From IMG/VR virus record IMGVR_UViG_2909262264_000005: DNA of 64,000 nucleotides; one strand, 5' to 3'. Source of the stretch: a virus (lineage: Duplodnaviria; Heunggongvirae; Uroviricota; Caudoviricetes). Positions 4,306 to 63,456 of this stretch are shown here, in pieces; position 1 is the stretch's first letter; each line of letters opens with the position of its first letter. The translations under genes and the position numbers were made by a program. The notes under the pieces were generated by a model. The model did not search any database and was not told the origin of the DNA. It worked only from the letters and a program-made list of their open reading frames with translations.

Positions 4306-5693
4306 AAGAAACGCTCCATCTTACTGCTGTCAGTTCGTTTGTTGCTGTATCTGCGCGGCTGGGGCTGCTGCATTGGGGTAGAAAGAATCTGTGCGCTTTC
4401 CTGATCCACAGGCAGAAAATGTCCGTTATAAAAACGCCGGTAAATCGTTCCCAGAGAACCGTTACGTTGTTTCGTGATATTGATTTCTGCGATGCCCCTG
4501 GCCTGCGTATCCGGGTTGTACACTTCATCCCTGTAAAGCATCAGAATGATGTCTGCATCCGCCTCTATTTCTCCGGAATTTTTCAGGTCTGAGTTCATGG
4601 GGCGTTTGTTGGGTCTGGACTCCACACCGCGGGAGAGCTGGCTCAGCGCAATCAACGGAAAACCACCGGATTTTGCCAGGCCTTTAAGCCCCTTTGAGAT
4701 TTCACCAACGGCAAGGTCATGACGCCCCGTGGTTCGGGTTTTTATCAGTCCGAGATAATCAACCACCACCAGCGCCGTTTCCGGATGTTTAATCAGGTGG
4801 TGTTTCGTTGTTGCGCATATCTCGTCAATGGTCAGGTTCGCCTGGTCCACCATCCAGATATTGCGCCCGGTCATCCGCCCCACTCCTTGTGAGAAACGTG
4901 CCCAGTCTTCGTCTTCAAAGTGAGTGACAGATTTCAGGCGTGATACCGGCATTCCTCCAGCCGCAGATACCATGCGCTCACCAATCTGGATGTTCGCCAT
5001 TTCCATTGTGAACAGAAGAACACCGCGCCCCTGTTCAGTCACCTTGTCGATGATATCCAGCGCCAGTTCGGTTTTGCCCATCGAAGGACGAGCAGCAATA
5101 AATACCAGGTCGCCAGGCTCCATGCCGCCCGTTTTTGCGTCCAGTTCATCAATACCGGTCATCAACGTCCTGGATTTCTCCAGCCCCTGATTCCGGCATT
5201 CAACACGCTCAACCACTTCCGGAAGCACATCATCAATATGTACCGGCTGAATAACGCCCTTTTCCGTCGACAATGAGGCCATCATGTTCTGCGCATCCTT
5301 CAGAGCATCTTCAGCTGCTTCACAGGTATGCGCATCACGTAATTTCTGCAGCGCCTCATTCAGTGTTTTTTCTGCATCACGCAATGCGGCATTACGCCGC
5401 AACGCCGTAACATAGTGCTCCAGTGACGACTTCACCCAGGTTTTGCGCCCGGTATCAGTAATCACCGGGGCAAGTTCCGGCATCTCATTACACAACAGCA
5501 CAGGGTCAATCACGCCTGAAACACGGGCCTGTCGGCAGATGCCTGTGTAGATATCCCGATACGCTCGTACAGAAAAAACGTCTGCCGGCAATGTGGCCAG
5601 AATATCCATCACTTCATGATCTGCCCCTCGCAGAAAAAACGCGCCAATGACAGCGCCTTCCAGGTCATCGTTACGCCAGACAGGAGAAGTCAT
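4302..5693 (-). CDS. Replicative DNA helicase (DnaB family)
   Basis: Walker A GARPSMGKTELALDI, DnaB C-terminal motifs (ALSQLSRGVESRPNKRP, ILMLYRDEVY); start taken at MTSPVWRNDD (ATG 5693) overlapping the upstream gene stop; the GTG-extended ORF reaches 5732. Confidence 0.85.
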   Translation of the reverse strand: MTSPVWRNDDLEGAVIGAFFLRGADHEVMDILATLPADVFSVRAYRDIYTGICRQARVSGVIDPVLLCNEMPELAPVITDTGRKTWVKSSLEHYVTALRRNAALRDAEKTLNEALQKLRDAHTCEAAEDALKDAQNMMASLSTEKGVIQPVHIDDVLPEVVERVECRNQGLEKSRTLMTGIDELDAKTGGMEPGDLVFIAARPSMGKTELALDIIDKVTEQGRGVLLFTMEMANIQIGERMVSAAGGMPVSRLKSVTHFEDEDWARFSQGVGRMTGRNIWMVDQANLTIDEICATTKHHLIKHPETALVVVDYLGLIKTRTTGRHDLAVGEISKGLKGLAKSGGFPLIALSQLSRGVESRPNKRPMNSDLKNSGEIEADADIILMLYRDEVYNPDTQARGIAEINITKQRNGSLGTIYRRFYNGHFLPVDQESAQILSTPMQQPQPRRYSNKRTDSSKMERFF

Positions 5694-7860: not shown

Positions 7861-8518
7861 GGCGCGCCTCCCATTGATTACGGCGAAAAGCGGTGTGACT
7901 GAGGCTGGTTTCTGCCTTATGGAATGCTTCAATACAGCTCTCGTAGTACCGCATTGTGCGCAGACTTAACCCAAGCTGAAGCATCATCAGGCCGTCAAGG
8001 GTGATGTAATAACCACGCAGGGAATCGCCATACACGTGGTAAGTACCCGGTATGAAATTACGGGAGAAGAATTCACGCGAGCAGTTCAAATACTCGATTT
8101 TGTCGACGATGTTCTGGTGCATGCGCTTAAAGTGGCAGGCAACATGCAGGGAGAAAATAACAGCTTTGCCGTTGACGACTTCAATTTTGAGGAATGAGTG
8201 GGTTGGGACTGTAGCCATGATGGCAACCTCCTTGAGCAGTGAAAGACTTCCACCACCGGAGGTTCCAAGCTCGCTGGTGGCGGACTGAACAGGGTTGGAA
8301 CTACCGGCGCTCAAGGAAACCGGCGAGCCTTTCGGCTCCCCTGCCCAGCCCACCATAATTCTGGCGTGCGCGAGCATGGACGATAAAAAAGACGCTGGCG
8401 CGTCGTATATCGCCTCGAGCAATTCCGGGGTTCCAATCCCGGCACCCGCTTTATAAGGTGCCGGAACAGTGTAACGTCCCGAAATTGCAGAATCAATATT
8501 TAGGCTTGAAACATTCAT
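7853..8518 (-). CDS. Hypothetical replication-module protein (221 aa)
   Basis: Shares a conserved ~120-aa segment (…IPGRYTV.APYKAGAGIG…AIYDAPASFLSS…IMVGW…) with the 278-aa ORF at 56511-57347. Confidence 0.55.
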   Translation of the reverse strand: MNVSSLNIDSAISGRYTVPAPYKAGAGIGTPELLEAIYDAPASFLSSMLAHARIMVGWAGEPKGSPVSLSAGSSNPVQSATSELGTSGGGSLSLLKEVAIMATVPTHSFLKIEVVNGKAVIFSLHVACHFKRMHQNIVDKIEYLNCSREFFSRNFIPGTYHVYGDSLRGYYITLDGLMMLQLGLSLRTMRYYESCIEAFHKAETSLSHTAFRRNQWEARHV

Positions 8519-14799: not shown

Positions 14800-15009
14800 G
14801 TGGGGCTGGATTGCGTACCTATATCAACCTACTGCCGCAACGCAGGAGAAACGGTTGATGCCGTTAACAAACGGATACAAAGAGGAATATGGAAAGAAGG
14901 GGTACATGTATTAAAAGTCGACGGAGTTAAAGAACGTTGGGTCGACTTAATGGAGATTACAAAATGGGCAAGAAAGAACAAGGATCATTATCTCTCCCTA
15001 GAGGAGTAA
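14800..15009 (+). CDS. xis: Excisionase (Xis-like)
   Basis: 69 aa from a GTG; …LDCVPISTYCRNAGETVDAVNKRIQRG.WKEGVHVLKV.GVKERWVDL… paralog of 62114-62320; 3' end overlaps the integrase start. Confidence 0.65.
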   Translation: MGLDCVPISTYCRNAGETVDAVNKRIQRGIWKEGVHVLKVDGVKERWVDLMEITKWARKNKDHYLSLEE

Positions 15010-16136
15010 CTATTCGGCAGCATAAAACTGGTAGCACTCTGGTTATCACTTTTACATATAAAGGGGTTCTGTGTCGGGAGCCCCTCTCCAGAATGGAAGT
15101 AAACGCGCGCGGTGTGAAGTACGCAGAACGTCTGCTGGGAGAAATAAAAAATCAGATTATCGATGGTACCTTCGAATATGCAAAATACTTCCCCAACTCC
15201 CAAAAGCTGGAGTTGTTCGGGGGAGTGAAAAAAAACAAAAATATAAAATCTTATCTGGATGAATACCTGATTATCTGCCAGAACCGTAACCTGTCACCAT
15301 CGACAATTAGAGGTTATGAAAAATGCTTGTCGGCGCTGTCAGCATTGCATAAATTTCATGTATCAGAACTGACACCTGCTGTACTAAAAAACTGGATCGC
15401 CAGCAGAAAAACAAAACTGAAAACGATCCGCAATAATCTTTCGTTTCTGCGCAGCGCCATAGATGAAGCGGTGACCGATGGTTTGTTAACAATAAATCCT
15501 GTCACGCTAGTCAGCGCCAGCCGGTATCACGTATTGGACAACACACCAGGCAGTGGTGATTACGAGGTCGATCCCTTTACACCAGCGGAGACGGCAGCAA
15601 TCTATGACGCCTGTCATTACCCGGAATGGCGAAATCTGTTTCGCTTTGCCTTTAATACCGGACTGCGTAGCTCAGAATTGTGCGCGTTGCGCTGGACGGA
15701 TATAGACTTCATCGGCAACACCGCGCATGTTCAAACTGCAAGCGTAGTCGGGGTAATCAAAAGCACCAAAACAAAAGCCGGCACCCGCAAAGTGCAACTG
15801 AACAGCGAAGCGCTGGCGGCTCTTCAGGCACAAAAGCCCTACACGGCGCTAAAGAGCGACTTCATATTCAGCGATCCGAAAACTCGCGCTCCTTGGGCAA
15901 ACGCAGATGCGATCCGAAAAAAAGCCTGGGTACCAACCCTTAAAAAAGCTGGTGTACGCTATCGCAATCCGTACCAGACACGCCACACGTTCGCCACACG
16001 GCACATTAGCCAGGGCGTTAACCTGTTCTGGCTTGCTGGTCAGATGGGACATAAAGGACCGGAAATGCTGTTCAGACATTACGGCTCTTACCTTGCAGAA
16101 TACGATGGAAAAACGGCGATTTCTGCAGCCCCGTAA
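14964..16136 (+). CDS. int: Tyrosine integrase (phage integrase family)
   Basis: 390 aa; C-terminal catalytic region …RNPYQTRHTFATRHISQGVNLFWLAGQMGHKGPEMLFRHYGSYL; adjacent to att core. Confidence 0.9.
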   Translation: MGKKEQGSLSLPRGVTIRQHKTGSTLVITFTYKGVLCREPLSRMEVNARGVKYAERLLGEIKNQIIDGTFEYAKYFPNSQKLELFGGVKKNKNIKSYLDEYLIICQNRNLSPSTIRGYEKCLSALSALHKFHVSELTPAVLKNWIASRKTKLKTIRNNLSFLRSAIDEAVTDGLLTINPVTLVSASRYHVLDNTPGSGDYEVDPFTPAETAAIYDACHYPEWRNLFRFAFNTGLRSSELCALRWTDIDFIGNTAHVQTASVVGVIKSTKTKAGTRKVQLNSEALAALQAQKPYTALKSDFIFSDPKTRAPWANADAIRKKAWVPTLKKAGVRYRNPYQTRHTFATRHISQGVNLFWLAGQMGHKGPEMLFRHYGSYLAEYDGKTAISAAP

Positions 16137-16268: not shown

Positions 16269-16295
16269 CGGGTTCAACTCCCGCCAGCTCCACCA
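16269..16295 (+). other. att core: duplicate of the tmRNA (ssrA) 3' end (T-arm + acceptor 3' strand + CCA)
   Basis: CGGGTTCAACTCCCGCCAGCTCCACCA = T-stem/TΨC loop (GGTTCAACTCC), acceptor 3' strand CAGCTCC, discriminator A, CCA; upstream sequence is integrase 3' flank, so only the 3' fragment is present; matches my recollection of the E. coli ssrA 3' end. Confidence 0.6.
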
Positions 16296-16426
16296 ATCAT
16301 GATTGGACGGTGTAAGGACAACACCAACAAAAACAGGAAGTTAGCAGTCTCAGCAGGACACCGACCAGACGGTGAGGAGACAAAAAAGGATACGCAAAGG
16401 AGCCGCGGCTCTCGAGTGACACAAAA

Positions 16427-16453
16427 GCCCGCTTATGCGGGCTTTTTGTTTTT
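16427..16453 (+). terminator. Intrinsic terminator downstream of the att core
   Basis: GCCCGC-TTAT-GCGGGC followed by TTTTTGTTTTT. Confidence 0.5.
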
Positions 16454-16529
16454 CCCTTAAGTTCCTAGCCGCTTATCTATAACTATGGAAAAATGTTAAC
16501 CCTGACTGTATGTTAACAAAGGGATGTAT

Positions 16530-17738
16530 ATGTCGGTTTTTCATAACTGGCTGCTTGATATCGCAAGCGGGAATTACTTTATCTACATCAAACGCCTTTC
16601 TGCAAACGACACAGGCGCAACAGGTGGCCATCAGGTCGGACTTTATATCCCCTCAAATATCGTTGAAAAGCTTTTTCCATCTATCAATCATACTCGCGAA
16701 CTGAACCCTTCAGTCTTCCTTACTGCGCATGTATCATCCCATGATTGCCCTGATACCCAAGCACGCGCAATTTATTACAACAACCGTTATTTTGGTAAGA
16801 CCCGAAACGAAAAAAGAATTACGCGCTGGGGGAGAGGAAGTCCATTACAGAACCCTGAAAATACAGGAGCCCTCACAATTCTTGCTTTCAGGTTAAACGA
16901 ACAGAACACTGACTGTTCCGAGGTAGATATATGGGTCTGCGTCAATCCCGATGAAGAGGATATCATCGAGTCTGCTATTGGCGAAATCATACCTGGAACC
17001 CTAATTTCCGGCCCTGCCGGACAAATTTTGGGCGGATTGTCTCTTCAGCAAACTCCAGTAAATCATAAATATGTTATTCCTGAAGACTGGAAGAAGCGTT
17101 TTCCTTCTGGAAACGAAATTATTCAATATGCTGCTGGCCATTATGCTAAAAACTCCAAGGATCCAGATGAGCAACTGATTGACCGTCGGCGTGTCGAGTA
17201 TGATATTTTTCTACTCGTCGAGGAATTACATGTTATTGATATTATTAAGAAAGGATTCGATTCTGTAGATGAGTTTATTGCATTAGCCAACTCTGTCAGT
17301 AATCGACGTAAATCAAGGGCAGGCAAATCACTTGAACTTCACCTAGAGAAGCTTTTTATCGAGCACGGACTACGGCATTTCTCCACTCAGGCAGTTACTG
17401 AAGGTAATAAAAAACCAGATTTCCTGTTTCCTTCAGCAGAGGCATATCATAACGTTGAATTTCCTGTAGAAAACTTACGTATGCTGGCAGTAAAGACCAC
17501 CTGCAAAGATCGCTGGCGTCAGATACTGAATGAAGCAGATAAAATCCATCAGGTACATTTATTTACACTGCAAGAAGGTGTTTCTTCAGCACAATACCGA
17601 GAAATGAAAGATGCGGGTGTCAGACTCGTTGTACCATCAACTTTACATAAAAAATACCCAGAAGCAGTTAGAGAAGAATTAATAACGCTCGGAGCATTCA
17701 TTACTGAGCTGATAGAGCTTTACGCTGAACTATCATAG
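16530..17738 (+). CDS. Type II restriction endonuclease, EcoRII family
   Basis: Start MSVFHNWLLDIASGNYFIYIKRLSANDTGATGGHQVGLYIPS matches my recollection of the EcoRII N-terminus; ~402 aa; convergent with a C5-cytosine methyltransferase. Confidence 0.75.
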   Translation: MSVFHNWLLDIASGNYFIYIKRLSANDTGATGGHQVGLYIPSNIVEKLFPSINHTRELNPSVFLTAHVSSHDCPDTQARAIYYNNRYFGKTRNEKRITRWGRGSPLQNPENTGALTILAFRLNEQNTDCSEVDIWVCVNPDEEDIIESAIGEIIPGTLISGPAGQILGGLSLQQTPVNHKYVIPEDWKKRFPSGNEIIQYAAGHYAKNSKDPDEQLIDRRRVEYDIFLLVEELHVIDIIKKGFDSVDEFIALANSVSNRRKSRAGKSLELHLEKLFIEHGLRHFSTQAVTEGNKKPDFLFPSAEAYHNVEFPVENLRMLAVKTTCKDRWRQILNEADKIHQVHLFTLQEGVSSAQYREMKDAGVRLVVPSTLHKKYPEAVREELITLGAFITELIELYAELS

Positions 17739-17772
17739 GCTGACTCCCGGCTTAAAAGGCCGGGAGATGTTC

Positions 17773-19206
17773 TCAAGGCTGCCCAGTCTTACCAGCATCA
17801 GCAGAAACAGCTTTGAGGATATAGGGTTCCAGAAGTCTGGCAACAGCTTCAAATACTGGCACCACAACTGAGTTACCGAACTGCCGATATGACTGAGTAT
17901 CTGAAACCGGAATACGGAATGGTTTCCCTCCAGGTTTTTCAAATCCCATAAGGCGTGCGCACTCTCGGGGAGTCAGCCTGCGTGGTCGACGAGCCTGATT
18001 ACTCTCATTCATAAAGTCAGCCTCTCCCGTTGCCATATCCCAACCACGATCAATAAGAATTTCTGATCCGTCTTTGTGATATCTGGCAGAAAGTGTGCGT
18101 GCAATGCTTTCCTTATTCTCAGGATTGACCAACCCAAAGCCAAAACCATTCCCCTTGGCTGCATGCTTTTTGGCGTAGTTATAAAGGTACTCCCATAGTT
18201 TTGGCGTAAGTATATATTTACTGTCGACTACAGGCTCCAGCAATTCACCAAATGATGGGCGGTGTTCCGGATAAAAACGACTGATATCACGCAAGGTAAA
18301 CCCCTTGTGAATATTCAGATCTCGTCTAAATCCGACCAGAACAATACGTTCACGATGCTGAGGCAAAAAATGCTTCCCATCGATAATCTTTGGATCGTTT
18401 TTTCCCATTTCTGCAGCATCGGCAACTTCGTAGCCCAGCTCGTCAAGGGTCTCCATAATGACTTTGAAAGTTTTACCCTTATCATGGCTCTTCAGATTTT
18501 TGACATTTTCCAGCACAAAAATTGCCGGTTTTTTTGCTCGTATAATACGTGCCACGTCAAAAAAAAGTGTTCCTTGTGCTTCACATTCAAAACCATGCGC
18601 ACGACCAAGTGAGTTTTTCTTACTAACACCAGCAAGGCTAAATGGCTGGCACGGGAACCCCGCAAGAAGCACATCATGATCCGGCACATGCTCATCAATA
18701 TATGCATAAGCATCCGTTTCCAATACATCGGTTTTATCACTCAGCGTGACTTCCCGAATATCGAGATTGAATTTATGCACCTGTTCATCGTTAAACCAGT
18801 TGGCCTTGTATGTACGCACAGCATCTTTATTCCATTCACTGGTAAAAACACACTGGCCTCCAATGGCCTCAAAACCTTTCCGTATCCCTCCAATTCCAGC
18901 AAATAAGTCAATGAAGCGGAAAGCATATTCCGGATGGTTTGCAGGTGGTTCTGGTAGCATCTTACGCAGAAGAGACTCTTCTACTGAAGTCAACGATTTT
19001 GGTAAACACTTGCCATTAATCCAGCGGTTAATGGTTTCACGGCTCCACTCATTTTTTCCGACTTTTCTCAGTAATTCAGCCACATACTTCTGATCATAGA
19101 TTTCCAGCACTTTCTCGATAAGCTTTTTATCATTTTCCTGTCGCAGCTTTTCTTCCGCCTCGGCTTCCTTCAGCAGATGCTGTGCCAACACTTCAAATTC
19201 AGACAT
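17773..19206 (-). CDS. DNA (cytosine-5)-methyltransferase, Dcm/M.EcoRII-like
   Basis: Motif [16 protein letters not shown], motif [22 protein letters not shown]; start MSEFEVLAQ with RBS GGAGG; tail-to-tail with the endonuclease gene (34-bp gap). Confidence 0.85.
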
Positions 19207-19567
19207 AATTCCTCCAAGGGGTCTAATGGGTGAAACTTTATCACTCATTCAACCCAGAAGGAAATGTTTTATCTGGATATTTAAACAGTGACTACAACGT
19301 AATCTAGCACTGGTGATGCTTTGTTAGGCATAGAGAATCATTCTATATACGACTAATGACAGAAAAACAGCAGACAAGTAGTTTGTTCATAAATTAACGC
19401 ATACTATGTGTCTACGGTTTTCGAGACCGGTCCAATCATCAAACGAAACATAAAATTAGCTCACATTATGAGGAAAAGTATCTTTTTTGTACTATGTAAA
19501 TTCAAAGGCTTAGCCTCATTTCTCCGATGGTTTTCTCAACACTACTGGTTGTGAGCCCTTGCAATGA

Positions 19568-20386
<819 letters not shown>

Positions 20387-20408
20387 GTCTTTAAGTGATA
20401 AGCATAAA

Positions 20409-20452
20409 CCGCAGCACGTCATGCATACGTCGTGTCTGCGGTTTTTCTTTTT
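20409..20452 (+). terminator. Hairpin terminator between GIY-YIG gene and tfa
   Basis: CCGCAGCACG…CGTGTCTGCGG stem followed by TTTTTCTTTTTT. Confidence 0.4.
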
Positions 20453-20455
20453 TGC

Positions 20456-21040
20456 TTACACGGTGTCTGGTTCTTCTGGCCACTCAATATCCGGTGCAGT
20501 TGATGTATCAACACGGTTCAGCAACACCCGATACTTTTTCCAGGCTTCCAGCAATGAGGTTTCTTCCTCCGTTGCGATTTCCAGATCTACAGCATCCTGA
20601 AGTGGCGCAATATGCTCACTGGCTACCTGCATCAGGCTGTTTTTTGTTTCTTCCGCCTCTCGGATCCGGAACAGTTTTTCTGCTTCTGCATCTTTCACCC
20701 AGGCTGTGCCGTTCCACTTCTGAAACTCCCCTTCCGGCGATAACCAGGTAACATTTTCCGGTAACGGACCGAGTTCAGAAATAAATAACGCGTCCCCTGA
20801 CGCTACGTCATAAACCGTTTTACCCCGATGGTCTTCATCGAGATGCCACGATGCCTTATCACTGTTGAAAACAGCCACAAAGCCAGCAGGAATATCTGGT
20901 GGTGCAATATCGGTACTGTTTGCTGGCAGACCTGTATGAGGCGGAATATATGCGTCACCTTCACCAATAAATTCATTAGTTCCGGCCAGCAGATTATAAA
21001 TTTTTATGGTCCGTGGTTGTTCACTCATTCTGAATGCCAT
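20456..21040 (-). CDS. tfa: Tail fiber assembly protein
   Basis: [44 protein letters not shown]…; start overlaps stf stop (TAATG). Confidence 0.8.
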
Positions 21041-49795: not shown

Positions 49796-51361
49796 TCAGT
49801 GGTAGTAGCCCGGACCACGCAGGTTTTCATGCTCTGAAGCATATGTCGGATGTTGTTCGCCCTGGCGGGATAATGGAAGCTCCAGGTTCTCCCGATGGTG
49901 ACGCAGCAGATTGTCGATAAAGCGTCTGTCAGGGGCGTTATAGTGCAGGGCAACGTAACAGGCCTTTTCCAGTCGTTCCGGGCCGTATTTTTTCTGAAGT
50001 GCCAGCAGCCCCAGAACTGCACGATAAGCCAGTTCCGGATGGGGTTTTGCCTTCAGCATGGATTCAACCACCCGGCCTGTGGACGGGCCCGTACGTTTCC
50101 CCTGCTCGATCAGGCGTTCCGGTGTCCATGTCCCGTGCTGCCGGTGGCGCTCTGGCATGTGAAGCGGATTGGTTGTGTGTTTATATTCATGTGTGCTGCG
50201 CGGATGTTGCGCCACACACTGCCCCTTGTGCCAGAGTTGTACCACAGACTGCCCCGCCTTCAGTGACAGACGCTGACCGACCAGTTCGTGTGGAACGGAG
50301 TACCAGTGACGGGCATATTCAACGTGATAGTCAGGGCCAACCTTCACGGCTTTGTATTCCGTGTATTCATAAGGTGCCAGAGGCAGCGGAGAGAGTGCTG
50401 GCGCATCCAGCATGCGGAAGCGTTCTGCACGGGTTTGATTGCCGTACCCCTTCATTGGCCGGTTATTCATGTCCGTCAGTAACTCCCGAAGGCGCGCATT
50501 CAGCGCCCTGAGCGTGTGGAAGGTTTCATTACGGATGCGGGCAAGAAGCCATCGTTCGACGATGAGGACGCCGTTTTCTGCTTTTGGTTTATCTTTAGGT
50601 TTGCGCGGGCGGGCCGGGATAATAACCGTGCCATAGTGCTCAGCCAGCGCCTGATAACTGTCGTTGATGACAGGCTCATAGCGATCGGCTTTTTTGACTG
50701 CACTTTTGAGATTATCGGGGATGAGCAGCTTCGGCACGCCGCCCAGGAAGGTCAGGCAACGGCTGTGGGCATTTAACCATGACATCATGTCCTGACCTTC
50801 GCACGCTTCAACGTAGGTATAGTTGGATGCCCCCATCACGGCCACGAAGATTGCCACGCGGCGTATCTCTCCGGTGTCCGGATTAATAACAGGAACCGTA
50901 GGACCGCAGAAGTCGATAAAGAGCTTTTCGCCGGCACGATGCTCCTGGCGCATGGAGAGGCGTCGCGTTTTTTTCCACTCCCGGTAGCAACGGCAGAAGT
51001 GCGAGTATCCCATCGCTTTGTCACTCGCCTGTGCCTTGTATTCCATCCACAACAGCTGGCGCGTCACGCCCGGTTTTCTCATTTCCGTATCGAAGTACAG
51101 CATGTCAGGCATAACAAGCTCTGACGCAGAGGTGTCTTTGGGCGGGTAAATGAGTTTCTCCAGCGTGTCATGGGATATATCAGCAGGTAATGGCCATGAC
51201 AGAGAAGAGGCTTTGAAGCGTGCAAGAACCTCAAAAACGGTTGAGGCGCTGATGTGTAACGTCAGTCCGATACAACGGTTAGTCAGCTTCTGGTCGAACT
51301 TGAGCTGAAGGATCTTAAAACAGGTTTCCATAGTGCTCCTGGATTTTCTCTTTCTGGACAT
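49796..51361 (-). CDS. istA: IS21-family transposase IstA
   Basis: N-terminal HTH region, DDE-type core (…LFIDFCG…DNLKS…); start at MSRKRK (RBS GGAG) or 30 nt downstream at METCF (RBS AGGAG), uncertain. Confidence 0.85.
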   Translation of the reverse strand: MSRKRKSRSTMETCFKILQLKFDQKLTNRCIGLTLHISASTVFEVLARFKASSLSWPLPADISHDTLEKLIYPPKDTSASELVMPDMLYFDTEMRKPGVTRQLLWMEYKAQASDKAMGYSHFCRCYREWKKTRRLSMRQEHRAGEKLFIDFCGPTVPVINPDTGEIRRVAIFVAVMGASNYTYVEACEGQDMMSWLNAHSRCLTFLGGVPKLLIPDNLKSAVKKADRYEPVINDSYQALAEHYGTVIIPARPRKPKDKPKAENGVLIVERWLLARIRNETFHTLRALNARLRELLTDMNNRPMKGYGNQTRAERFRMLDAPALSPLPLAPYEYTEYKAVKVGPDYHVEYARHWYSVPHELVGQRLSLKAGQSVVQLWHKGQCVAQHPRSTHEYKHTTNPLHMPERHRQHGTWTPERLIEQGKRTGPSTGRVVESMLKAKPHPELAYRAVLGLLALQKKYGPERLEKACYVALHYNAPDRRFIDNLLRHHRENLELPLSRQGEQHPTYASEHENLRGPGYYH

Positions 51362-51563
51362 TGCCGTCTCCACTGGTTTAAACACGGCAATGAAGACTGT
51401 GGTGAAAAGAGTTAATTCCCGGAGTGACTGGCAGGATGCCAATCAATGATCGGAAGCATGCCAAATCGTGATCGATTGTGATGCCAAACTGTGATCGGAG
51501 ATGGATGCCAAATCATGATCGATTCGAATGCCAAACCGTGATCGATTTAGATGCCATTTTGCA

Positions 51564-56518: not shown

Positions 56519-57347
56519 GACGATGCCCTCCGCTGATATTCAGGAGACGGTGAATATGAAAATTAGCCTTATCCGCCAAACGGATACGTTCAGCCTGCAA
56601 GTTAAGAAGGGTTTCTACCAGAACCTGATGCGCCTGCGGATCCGAAAGAGTTACCTTGCGCAGAGCACGTAGTGCAGTTGTTACATAACTGAGTTTATGT
56701 AAGTCTTCATCATTCAGACGAGTGAGGGCTGGGACAGTAGCCATGATGGCAGCCTCCGATAACAGTGAATTACCTTCACCACCGGAAACGCCAATTTCGC
56801 TGGTGGTGAACTGAACGGGGTTGGCGTAACCGGCGTTATCGGAAACCGGCGCACCTTTCGGTGCCCCCGTCCAGCCCACCATAATTTGGGTGTGCGCAGA
56901 CGCAGACGATAAAAAAGACGCTGGCGCGTCATATATCGCCGATAACATTTCCAGGACGCCAATCCCGGCACCCGCTTTATAAGGTGCCTGAACAGTGTAA
57001 CGTCCCGGAATGGCAGAATCAATGTGCTGGTGGTCCTTCACACTCAACAAAATCACGCCTGAATTTCCACAAAGGACTAAAGCACTCATGCGGGTAGTCT
57101 TTGCGAAGATAGATAACGCGCTGTGTTTCTGGCTCCCAACGAATAACATGGACATAAAGCCCTCTTCCATCACGAAACCAGCGGTTAAGTTCCTGCACAA
57201 CTCGCCCCCCACAGTCAGGTAAAGTTCTCTGTGGTTACTTACAGCCAGGTGATTTGGTAATCTGCATTCATGCCGTAACAACAGGTGTTCAGCGACACTG
57301 ACCACCAGCTGTTGCGACAAACGGTTATTTGCCGTTAAACTGTTCAT
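56511..57347 (-). CDS. Hypothetical replication-module protein (278 aa)
   Basis: Shares conserved core with 7853-8518. Confidence 0.55.
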   Translation of the reverse strand: MNSLTANNRLSQQLVVSVAEHLLLRHECRLPNHLAVSNHRELYLTVGGELCRNLTAGFVMEEGFMSMLFVGSQKHSALSIFAKTTRMSALVLCGNSGVILLSVKDHQHIDSAIPGRYTVQAPYKAGAGIGVLEMLSAIYDAPASFLSSASAHTQIMVGWTGAPKGAPVSDNAGYANPVQFTTSEIGVSGGEGNSLLSEAAIMATVPALTRLNDEDLHKLSYVTTALRALRKVTLSDPQAHQVLVETLLNLQAERIRLADKANFHIHRLLNISGGHRHA

Positions 57348-62113: not shown

Positions 62114-62320
62114 ATGCTGAACCTCGATTGTGTTCCAATCTCAACTTATTGCAAAGAAACTGGCGAAACTCCTGAAGCAATAAACAAACGTGTACAGCGC
62201 GGTGTTTGGCGTGAAGGTGTTCAGGTTTTAAAGGTTGAAGGCGTTAAGGAGAGGTGGATTGATCTTAGTGAGGTTGCAAAATGGGCCAGACAAAACTGCT
62301 CAAACTACCGCGCGGCGTAA
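62114..62320 (+). CDS. xis: Excisionase (Xis-like)
   Basis: MLNLDCVPISTYCKETGETPEAINKRVQRGVWREGVQVLKVEGVKERWIDL…; RBS GGAG; 3' end overlaps integrase start. Confidence 0.65.
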   Translation: MLNLDCVPISTYCKETGETPEAINKRVQRGVWREGVQVLKVEGVKERWIDLSEVAKWARQNCSNYRAA

Positions 62321-63456
62321 CAATCAGGAAACACCGCCAGGGCGAAACGATCAATATAACTTTCACCTACAAAGGAGTTAAATGTCGTGAGCCTCTTTCC
62401 AATCTGGAAGTAATACCAAAGAACATAAAATACGCCGAGCGCACACTCGGCGAAATTCATAATAAGATCGAAAGGGGAACATTCATTTATGCGGAATATT
62501 TTCCCCGTTCTGCTCGTTTGAAAATTTTTGGTAATGCTGCTGCAGGCAAAACGGTAAAAATGTACCTGGACGAATACCTTGAAATCTGCGAAACGAGAAA
62601 ACTTTCACCCTCTACGATTGGTGGTTATAAAAAATGCCGTAGTGCGTTAGCCTCACTCCACATTTGCCCTGCAAGTGAATTAACACCAGCAATCCTGAAA
62701 GCGTGGATTCAAAGCCAGAAAACGACCTTAAAAACAATTCGCAACCAGTTATCTTTCCTGCGGTCAGCACTTGATGAAGCCGTAACCGATGGGGTACTTC
62801 AAATTAACCCCGTATCGTTGGTAACTGCTTCGCGCTACCAAAGTGATAAGTCAGAAGCAGAAAGCAGCTACGTGGTTGATCCGCTATCACCAGCAGAAGT
62901 TGATGCATTACTAGCAGCAGCCGGAAACAAACAATGGGAAAATCTGTTCCGGTTCGCTATACATACAGGCCTGCGTAGTTCTGAATTATGTGCCCTTCGA
63001 TGGCGTGATATCGACTTTGTTGGAAAAACTGCCCATGTCCAGAGCGCAAGTGTTGTCGGTGTTATCAAAGGAACAAAGACAAAAGCCGGTACTCGTAAAG
63101 TTGAACTGACAGAAGAGGCAATGTTGGCGCTGATAAATCAGAAGCCATTTACATTCATGAAGGATGCTACTGTCTTTGAAGATCCAAAGACAAACAAACC
63201 GTGGGCCAGCGCCGATGCGATAAGGAAAAAAGCGTGGATACCAACCTTACGTAAAGCAGGTATCCGGTACCGTAACCCATATCAGACCAGGCATACATTC
63301 GCCACCAGCCATATCAGCCGTGGTGCGAACCTGTTCTGGCTTGCAGGCCAGATGGGCCATAAGGGACCAGAAATGCTATTTCGTCACTATGGCAGTTACC
63401 TTGCTGCATATGACGGACATACCGCTAAAAATACTAATGATACAAAACAGGCTTGA
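62281..63456 (+). CDS. int: Tyrosine integrase
   Basis: 391 aa; ~70% identical to the integrase at 14964-16136 with a divergent N-terminal domain and C-terminal tail. Confidence 0.9.
   Translation: MGQTKLLKLPRGVTIRKHRQGETINITFTYKGVKCREPLSNLEVIPKNIKYAERTLGEIHNKIERGTFIYAEYFPRSARLKIFGNAAAGKTVKMYLDEYLEICETRKLSPSTIGGYKKCRSALASLHICPASELTPAILKAWIQSQKTTLKTIRNQLSFLRSALDEAVTDGVLQINPVSLVTASRYQSDKSEAESSYVVDPLSPAEVDALLAAAGNKQWENLFRFAIHTGLRSSELCALRWRDIDFVGKTAHVQSASVVGVIKGTKTKAGTRKVELTEEAMLALINQKPFTFMKDATVFEDPKTNKPWASADAIRKKAWIPTLRKAGIRYRNPYQTRHTFATSHISRGANLFWLAGQMGHKGPEMLFRHYGSYLAAYDGHTAKNTNDTKQA

Follow-up and report, generated by a model that had tools for sequence, protein, structure and literature searches.

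The EcoRII restriction-modification (R-M) system has been studied as a plasmid enzyme. In its classical form (N3-type; PDB 1NA6, 3HQF, 3HQG), it resides on conjugative plasmids, including many of the IncN, IncX, and IncF groups, and its endonuclease and methyltransferase genes converge on a spacer of 33–34 bp. A related methyltransferase belongs to the Dcm-Vsr module of Escherichia coli, in which vsr overlaps or adjoins the methyltransferase gene. One phage with an EcoRII-type system has been published, the temperate Burkholderia phage KL3, which encodes an EcoRII-C endonuclease, a Vsr protein, and an EcoRII-type methylase, and is proposed to cut non-self DNA while its own DNA is methylated (PMC3091744). 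The state of cytosine is also the concern of PD-T4-3/CMoRE (hereafter CMoRE), a GIY-YIG type IV nuclease. It binds and degrades DNA containing 5-hydroxymethylcytosine (5hmC) or glucosyl-5hmC, not DNA containing cytosine or 5-methylcytosine (5mC), and protects against T-even phages (PMC12923530, with structures PDB 9U75 and 9U7U). The NILS69 study, made in a native host, found just two defences to be active, and CMoRE was among them (bioRxiv 10.1101/2024.12.20.629700).

The DNA analyzed here is the virus record IMGVR_UViG_2909262264_000005 (Caudoviricetes), a stretch of 64,000 nucleotides referred to below as the window. It holds two prophages and, where they meet, an EcoRII-type gene pair followed by a CMoRE gene. 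We consider, with a probability of about 0.85, that positions 16270–20444 form the att-proximal accessory (moron) region of a lambdoid ssrA prophage and carry two restriction functions. All the available sequence tests place the pair in the EcoRII family. The mechanism is known; the carrier and the linkage to CMoRE have not been described before. An earlier note on this DNA had described a free-standing EcoRII-like islet of 4 kb between the two prophages. Its R-M pair stands, but a third defence gene in the block, that of CMoRE, had gone unrecognized, and the block is accessory to the second prophage, as indicated by att repeats in strain G749 and by a circular phage genome.

The EcoRII-type gene pair

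The restriction endonuclease gene (R; 16530–17738, forward strand) encodes a type IIE enzyme of the EcoRII family of 402 residues, or 404 if the alternative start codon, ATG at 16524, is used. The protein aligns end to end over its full length with EcoRII (PDB 1na6; E = 2.5e-242) and is 86.8% identical to the EcoRII of plasmid pACN001-A. Both Pfam domains, EcoRII-N (E = 3.9e-61) and EcoRII-C (E = 3.6e-71), were found, so that R has the two-domain architecture of EcoRII, with an N-terminal B3-like effector domain and a C-terminal PD-(D/E)XK catalytic domain. All 27 functional residues listed for EcoRII by Golovenko et al. 2009 (PMC2770665) are identical in R (27/27). They comprise the four catalytic residues E271, D299, K324, and E337 (4/4), those that read out CC:GG (N260, K328, D329, and R330), the pocket of the flipped base (R222, E225, Y226, F229, R265, and A266), the base contacts of the effector domain (N28, H36, Q37, Y85, R94, E96, and R98; 7/7), and six phosphate-contact residues. 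The structural match, the Pfam domains, and the conservation of these residues bear out the EcoRII-like endonuclease of the earlier note, and the inactivating catalytic mutations that it had proposed to look for are absent. Judged by its sequence, R is an intact EcoRII-type enzyme with no sign of inactivation, and its specificity is very likely CCWGG. The exact protein is already public under a generic name on more than 1000 contigs.

The methyltransferase gene (M; 17773–19206, reverse strand), with a GGAGG Shine-Dalgarno sequence, encodes an M.EcoRII-type C5-cytosine methyltransferase. Like the plasmid enzyme, it has 477 residues. Its identity to plasmid M.EcoRII is 91.1%, and to K-12 Dcm 68.6%. 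The C5-methyltransferase motifs I, IV, VI, VIII, IX, and X are all present (FAGIGG at residue 102, PCQ at 185, ENV at 233, QHRER at 283, RRLTPRE at 409, and GNSV at 444). The Pfam domain DNA_methylase was detected (E = 4.7e-78), and the NCBIfam model PRK10458 of the Dcm subfamily, of which Dcm is also a member, scores the protein at 927 bits, above the cutoff of 710. The methyltransferase with canonical motifs that had been reported is confirmed by these three lines. Given the identity to Dcm and the subfamily score, the same CCWGG target is expected, and the 91% and 69% identities to M.EcoRII and Dcm point to the inner cytosine as the probable methylated base. An N-terminal DNA_meth_N domain (PF18284; E = 7.1e-27) is also found in the classical enzyme; in M.EcoRII it is the repressor domain.

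A homopolymer of eight T in the M coding strand (A8 on the forward strand, 18559–18566) lies within the GTLFFD codons. At this site, the classical M.EcoRII has TTTTCTTC and dcm has T6; when the two EcoRII systems are compared, the T8 run is found only here. In two of 37 related loci (L017 and L038), T7 replaces T8, and M is frameshifted while R is intact. Either these loci reflect sequencing errors, or they are natural R+ M− genotypes that survive because of host Dcm; if genuine, they would mean that Dcm covers for M.

R and M are convergent, at the positions first assigned to them, and are separated by 34 bp, as in the classical system. A structure scan found in this spacer a 10-bp GC-rich hairpin (17744–17766), a possible bidirectional terminator. 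Further likenesses to the classical system are the two domains of R and its identical catalytic, recognition, and effector residues. The differences amount to 13% of the amino acids of R and 9% of those of M, the DNA being about 80% identical, and extend to the carrier, which is a conjugative plasmid there and a chromosomal prophage here.

The block upstream of M is also kept. A stretch of 83 bp (19207–19289, reverse strand), which includes CCAGA...TCTGG, aligns with the region upstream of the classical M gene and is a candidate promoter and autorepression site. The two arms measure 5 nt each and were noticed by eye in the alignment only; the repeat finder, run with a 6-nt seed for an inverted-repeat operator upstream of M, returned trivial palindromes only. 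A consensus scan for a sigma-70 promoter gave nothing convincing at the 5′ end of M. M.EcoRII reportedly represses its own gene through a fused repressor domain and leaves the endonuclease gene unaffected (PMC12707154). An in-frame ATG lies 42 nt upstream of the M start (19207–19248, reverse strand) with no intervening stop codon and would add 14 residues; the classical plasmid allele has the same open extension.

Upstream of R, conservation is only partial. A TATAAC/TATAAT block (16478–16483), the Shine-Dalgarno sequence, and the start codon are shared with the classical system. A direct repeat containing TGTTAAC had been proposed as a regulatory site in this region. The repeat does exist (ATGTTAAC at 16493–16500 and 16510–16517), but it was rejected as a regulatory site on account of its chance-level frequency and lack of conservation. 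Of comparable 77-nt windows of the same sequence, 6.4% contain an exact repeat of 8 nt or longer, as do 3.5% of shuffles. Sister cassettes have ATGCTAAC as the second copy, and the region upstream of classical EcoRII keeps neither of the two.

In contrast to Dcm, M is paired with an endonuclease, and no vsr gene overlaps or follows it: the gene downstream of M is the convergent R. A tblastn search with K-12 Vsr over the whole 64-kb window found no vsr (best E = 1.7), in agreement with the earlier note. Repair would presumably be provided by host vsr in trans. Over 5426 complete E. coli genomes, the set used for all genome counts below, dcm-vsr is present in 5358 (98.7%), which supports the suggested overlap of the system with host Dcm methylation. 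The KL3 system resembles the present one as an EcoRII-family R-M system on a temperate phage. However, its nuclease has no N-terminal effector domain and shares only about 39% identity over the C-terminal domain; KL3 has its own vsr, its three genes are co-directional, and a host equivalent of Dcm is not reported in PMC3091744.

Location in the second of two prophages

The integrase gene of the first prophage (14937–16136, forward strand; Pfam Arm-DNA-bind_2 and Phage_integrase) lies at its right end, which adjoins an att core of 26 nt (16270–16295, forward strand; GGGTTCAACTCCCGCCAGCTCCACCA). This core corresponds to the 3′ end of ssrA, the transfer-messenger RNA (tmRNA) gene. It occurs as a single exact copy in the window, which contains no full tmRNA gene. 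The core is followed by a phage-derived P′ arm (16296–16455, forward strand) with 87–92% identity to the attP region of phage LLS. A terminator hairpin (16423–16446) and the T-run that follows it, up to 16455, are inside this arm; the att core and terminator noted earlier upstream of the pair are therefore both present. The P′ arm is conserved in attL and attR of strain G749 and in the AH02 and pHNAH sequences. When its 150 nt were searched for known RNAs, Rfam gave sub-threshold matches to STnc350, isrK, and RsmY, far below the gathering scores. The integrase gene of the second prophage (62281–63456, forward strand; assigned by Pfam domains) is at the other end of the window, and the two integrases are 69% identical.

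The position of the cassette was settled by comparison with strain G749, which has one prophage only at ssrA. The core aligns to the end of the full ssrA gene of this strain, where smpB and the full ssrA precede R, M, CMoRE, tfa, stf, lom, and J, and these are followed by the tail, head, and lysis genes, Q, the immunity region, and int; the tail genes are in the same order as in the window. Beyond int, 1.7 kb past the integrase, the 26-nt core recurs as a second exact copy (attR), and the att repeats enclose the cassette together with the prophage. Positions 16269–63392 of the window are collinear with the G749 prophage (about 94–99% identical), bar a 2.6-kb insertion. The same cassette is carried by NZ_CP081704.1, a closed circular complete phage genome of 43.7 kb, with int, DinI, a core-like site, R, M, CMoRE, an acyltransferase, and tail-fibre genes; the integrase of this phage is a different one, its core is a variant, and its tail is of the myovirus type. 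In the window, the tail-fibre assembly gene tfa (20456–21040, reverse strand; Pfam Caudo_TAP), the first structural gene of the second prophage, starts 69 bp past CMoRE with no extra core copy between the cassette and tfa, and no recombinase gene was found in 16296–20444. Because the G749 att repeats and the circular phage genome enclose it, the cassette is assigned to the attL-proximal accessory region of the second prophage. The core at 16270–16295 is a hybrid junction, attR of the first prophage and attL of the second, and two phages are thus integrated in tandem at ssrA in the window. By collinearity, attR of the second prophage would lie roughly 1 kb past the window end.

Variable accessory slots at fixed positions of temperate phages, holding anti-phage genes, are known from the lambda b region and the P2/P4 defence hotspots. 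The slot described here, between attP and the tail-fibre genes, differs from them in itself and in its backbone; the interval between attL and the tail-fibre genes corresponds in position to lambda's b region.

Homology between attL and attR extends over about 190 nt (window 16270–16455; L005 23079–23270; L003 19430–19620), not merely the 26-nt core, and beyond the core includes a conserved 150-nt stretch and the terminator. The circular phage AH02 keeps the P′ arm with a different, tRNA-like core (GCGGTCTCAACTCCGTCCCCCACCA) and a different integrase. These sequences suggest that the P′ arm may act as a recombination handle for cargo exchange. In strain ETEC1732 (L011, NZ_CP122823.1 1214000–1228000), a prophage is 95.7% identical over 84% of the first prophage of the window. 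In ETEC1732-type strains, the att core is followed not by the cassette but by a second integrase gene and a phage polarity-suppression gene, a segment read as a satellite-like element. As the core of ETEC1732 adjoins a second integrase instead of the cassette, ssrA is regarded as a multi-occupancy site.

CMoRE and the distribution of the cassette

The third gene of the cassette (19613–20386, forward strand) matches the PADLOC model PDLC04031 (E = 7.4e-139; residues 1–256 of 257) and the CMoRE of E. coli O157:H7 (PDB 9u75; E = 6.6e-170), from which it is separated by a handful of substitutions across 257 residues. On these alignments, it is a near-identical full-length CMoRE orthologue. There is no difference of substance from the described enzyme; what is added is the tight linkage to the EcoRII R-M pair. 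Since CMoRE spares 5mC, the product of M, the two enzymes are compatible, and CMoRE complements the R-M system, which phages with hydroxymethylated cytosine evade. By term search, 'prophage' and 'genomic context' are absent from the main text of the CMoRE paper (PMC12923530).

The cassette consists of segments with distinct relatives. The P′ arm module (16269–16447) matches the attP region of phage LLS. The R-M module (16462–19288) has 79.6% nucleotide identity over 2828 bp to pACN001-A, of the classical EcoRII plasmid type, and is about 80% identical to hundreds of enterobacterial plasmids. It is followed by a unique junction (19289–19411), for which no match was found, and by the CMoRE module (19412–20444), which is common to many prophages. 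The block 16269–20500, which contains the whole cassette, is nearly 100% identical in 243 of the 5426 genomes. The R allele (at least 99% nucleotide identity) was found in 261 (about 5%), almost always linked to CMoRE, which itself occurs in 837. Upstream of CMoRE, O157:H7 strains and EC21Z-101 have no R-M pair but an AraC-family regulator and an insertion sequence (IS) remnant. The simplest history suggested by these sequences is that the EcoRII module was inserted beside a resident CMoRE and that the two then spread as a pair.

R was found at 99–100% identity in 34 prophage contigs of IMG/VR, often at the contig edge. The P′ arm is present in every contig that extends upstream of R, CMoRE follows in 32 of the 34, and the tail modules are of at least two types. 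In the sampled related loci, R is intact in 36/37 and M in 34/37. One contig, IMGVR_UViG_2939177367_000001 (L014), has intact R and M and no CMoRE; its positions 4316–5400 hold about 1.1 kb of different sequence before the tail-fibre assembly gene. A collection of 50,697 records of isolated phages contained no full-length EcoRII-type enzyme, and the EcoRII-like nucleases retrieved by protein search were those of Burkholderia phage KL3 and of two metagenomic fragments only.

Several other features of the two prophages were recorded. The 2.6-kb insertion in the second prophage (48925–51562) contains an open reading frame (49796–51442, reverse strand) with rve and Mu-transposase C-terminal domains and is probably an IS element. 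A gene for an N6_N4 DNA methyltransferase (Pfam PF01555; 45639–46691, reverse strand) is also found in the second prophage. By annotation, the homologous G749 prophage (L005 6085–7137 and 12124–12777) has the same methyltransferase and, in addition, a phage N-6-adenine methyltransferase; the phage thus has several methylases in addition to M. A C4 antisense RNA and an isrK-like small RNA are paired in each prophage (8273–8461 and 56799–56987, both reverse strand), all above the gathering scores, which suggests P1/P7-type antisense immunity modules in both phages. A full-length match to the Rfam family IS009 (20499–20697, reverse strand; 229 bits, gathering score 117) falls within the tail-fibre assembly frame at 20456–21040.

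Proposed mechanism, alternatives, and significance

The following mechanism is proposed. M would methylate the inner cytosine of CCWGG and probably represses its own promoter through its N-terminal domain. R would be autoinhibited by its N-terminal effector domain and cut unmethylated CCWGG only when engaging at least two sites. CMoRE would degrade the 5hmC or glucosyl-5hmC DNA of T-even phages and ignore cytosine and 5mC. Together, the R-M pair and CMoRE would shield the lysogen, and hence the prophage, against incoming DNA whose cytosine is unmethylated or hypermodified. We further propose, tentatively and with more doubt than conviction, that the EcoRII pair and CMoRE form a co-selected and co-mobilized module that checks the state of cytosine, with 5mC as the sole state that passes; that this module moves as a unit between unrelated phage backbones by way of the shared attP arm; and that nothing would hinder its spread in E. 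coli, where host Dcm would pre-immunize each new lysogen against the endonuclease that arrives. If this were true, EcoRII-type systems would be unusually suited to phage carriage.

The window contains 154 CCWGG sites, of which only two are in the cassette (at 16992 and 17930), so that both prophages need methylation to be safe from R. As Dcm and Vsr are nearly universal, R should be harmless on entry into a new host, loss of the prophage should not kill, and no vsr is needed on the module. In typical hosts, the module would serve poorly for addiction and would depend on host Vsr for repair, and the likely benefit of the R-M pair is the restriction of DNA un- or under-methylated at CCWGG. In work by Hattman and colleagues in 1973, the host methylase reportedly protected lambda only partially against N3-encoded restriction.

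Some points weigh against a prophage region equipped with two working restriction functions. The attR of the second prophage is outside the window, and its position was taken from the collinearity with G749. The cassette was found in none of the 50,697 isolated-phage records, so that packaging of the lambdoid version is a presumption. At the 5′ end of R, a consensus scan for a sigma-70 promoter found nothing convincing. Coliphages from Dcm+ hosts are mostly methylated at CCWGG already, which may leave the R-M pair a narrow defensive range. Expression in the lysogen and the defence phenotype are themselves predictions from the DNA.

Was the cassette brought by neither phage? It could be an integrative islet in its own right, or what is left of a third element, lodged between the two prophages. 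This would fit its place in the window, between the integrase and core of the first prophage and the tail genes of the second, and its occurrence in different backbones, which speaks for modular mobility. However, no integrase gene lies in the block, no att copy sets it apart from tfa, the core copies in G749 bracket it with the whole prophage, and in NZ_CP081704.1 it is inside a closed circular phage genome; its left flank is the attP arm of a phage. An islet is thus very improbable, and accessory cargo of the second prophage is the reading retained.

Two further alternatives concern what this cargo does. The R-M pair could be an addiction module that stabilizes the prophage by post-segregational killing instead of defending against phages. 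The earlier note had raised this question of selfish versus defensive behaviour, which is pertinent but largely answered in the literature: EcoRII is reported to cause post-segregational killing, and Dcm to attenuate it (PMC3874152). Carriage on a mobile element is what an addiction module would predict, but 98.7% of the genomes have dcm-vsr, and the two loci with a frameshifted M and an intact R, if genuine, imply that Dcm covers for M. We therefore think addiction an unlikely function of the pair. It is also doubtful that the system is decaying or silent, with R inactive or unexpressed and M serving as an extra Dcm-like methylase that shields progeny from hosts with EcoRII plasmids. No clear promoter was detected for R, and selection on the pair could be weak, M being redundant with host Dcm. 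Against this, R is full length with all its catalytic and recognition residues, 261 genomes have it with conservation of at least 99%, it proved intact in 36 of the 37 sampled loci, and its Shine-Dalgarno sequence and −10-like block are shared with the classical system. Restriction by the prophage cargo, as proposed above, is the function that we retain.

The understanding of the EcoRII and CMoRE enzymes themselves is unchanged by these results. What they add to an enzyme known from plasmids is a diverged but fully intact allele in the att cargo slot of temperate phages. This is a natural setting in which to ask what an R-M system is worth to a prophage when the host already methylates its target, whether linked type II and type IV restriction are additive, and how defence cassettes are swapped between phage backbones.

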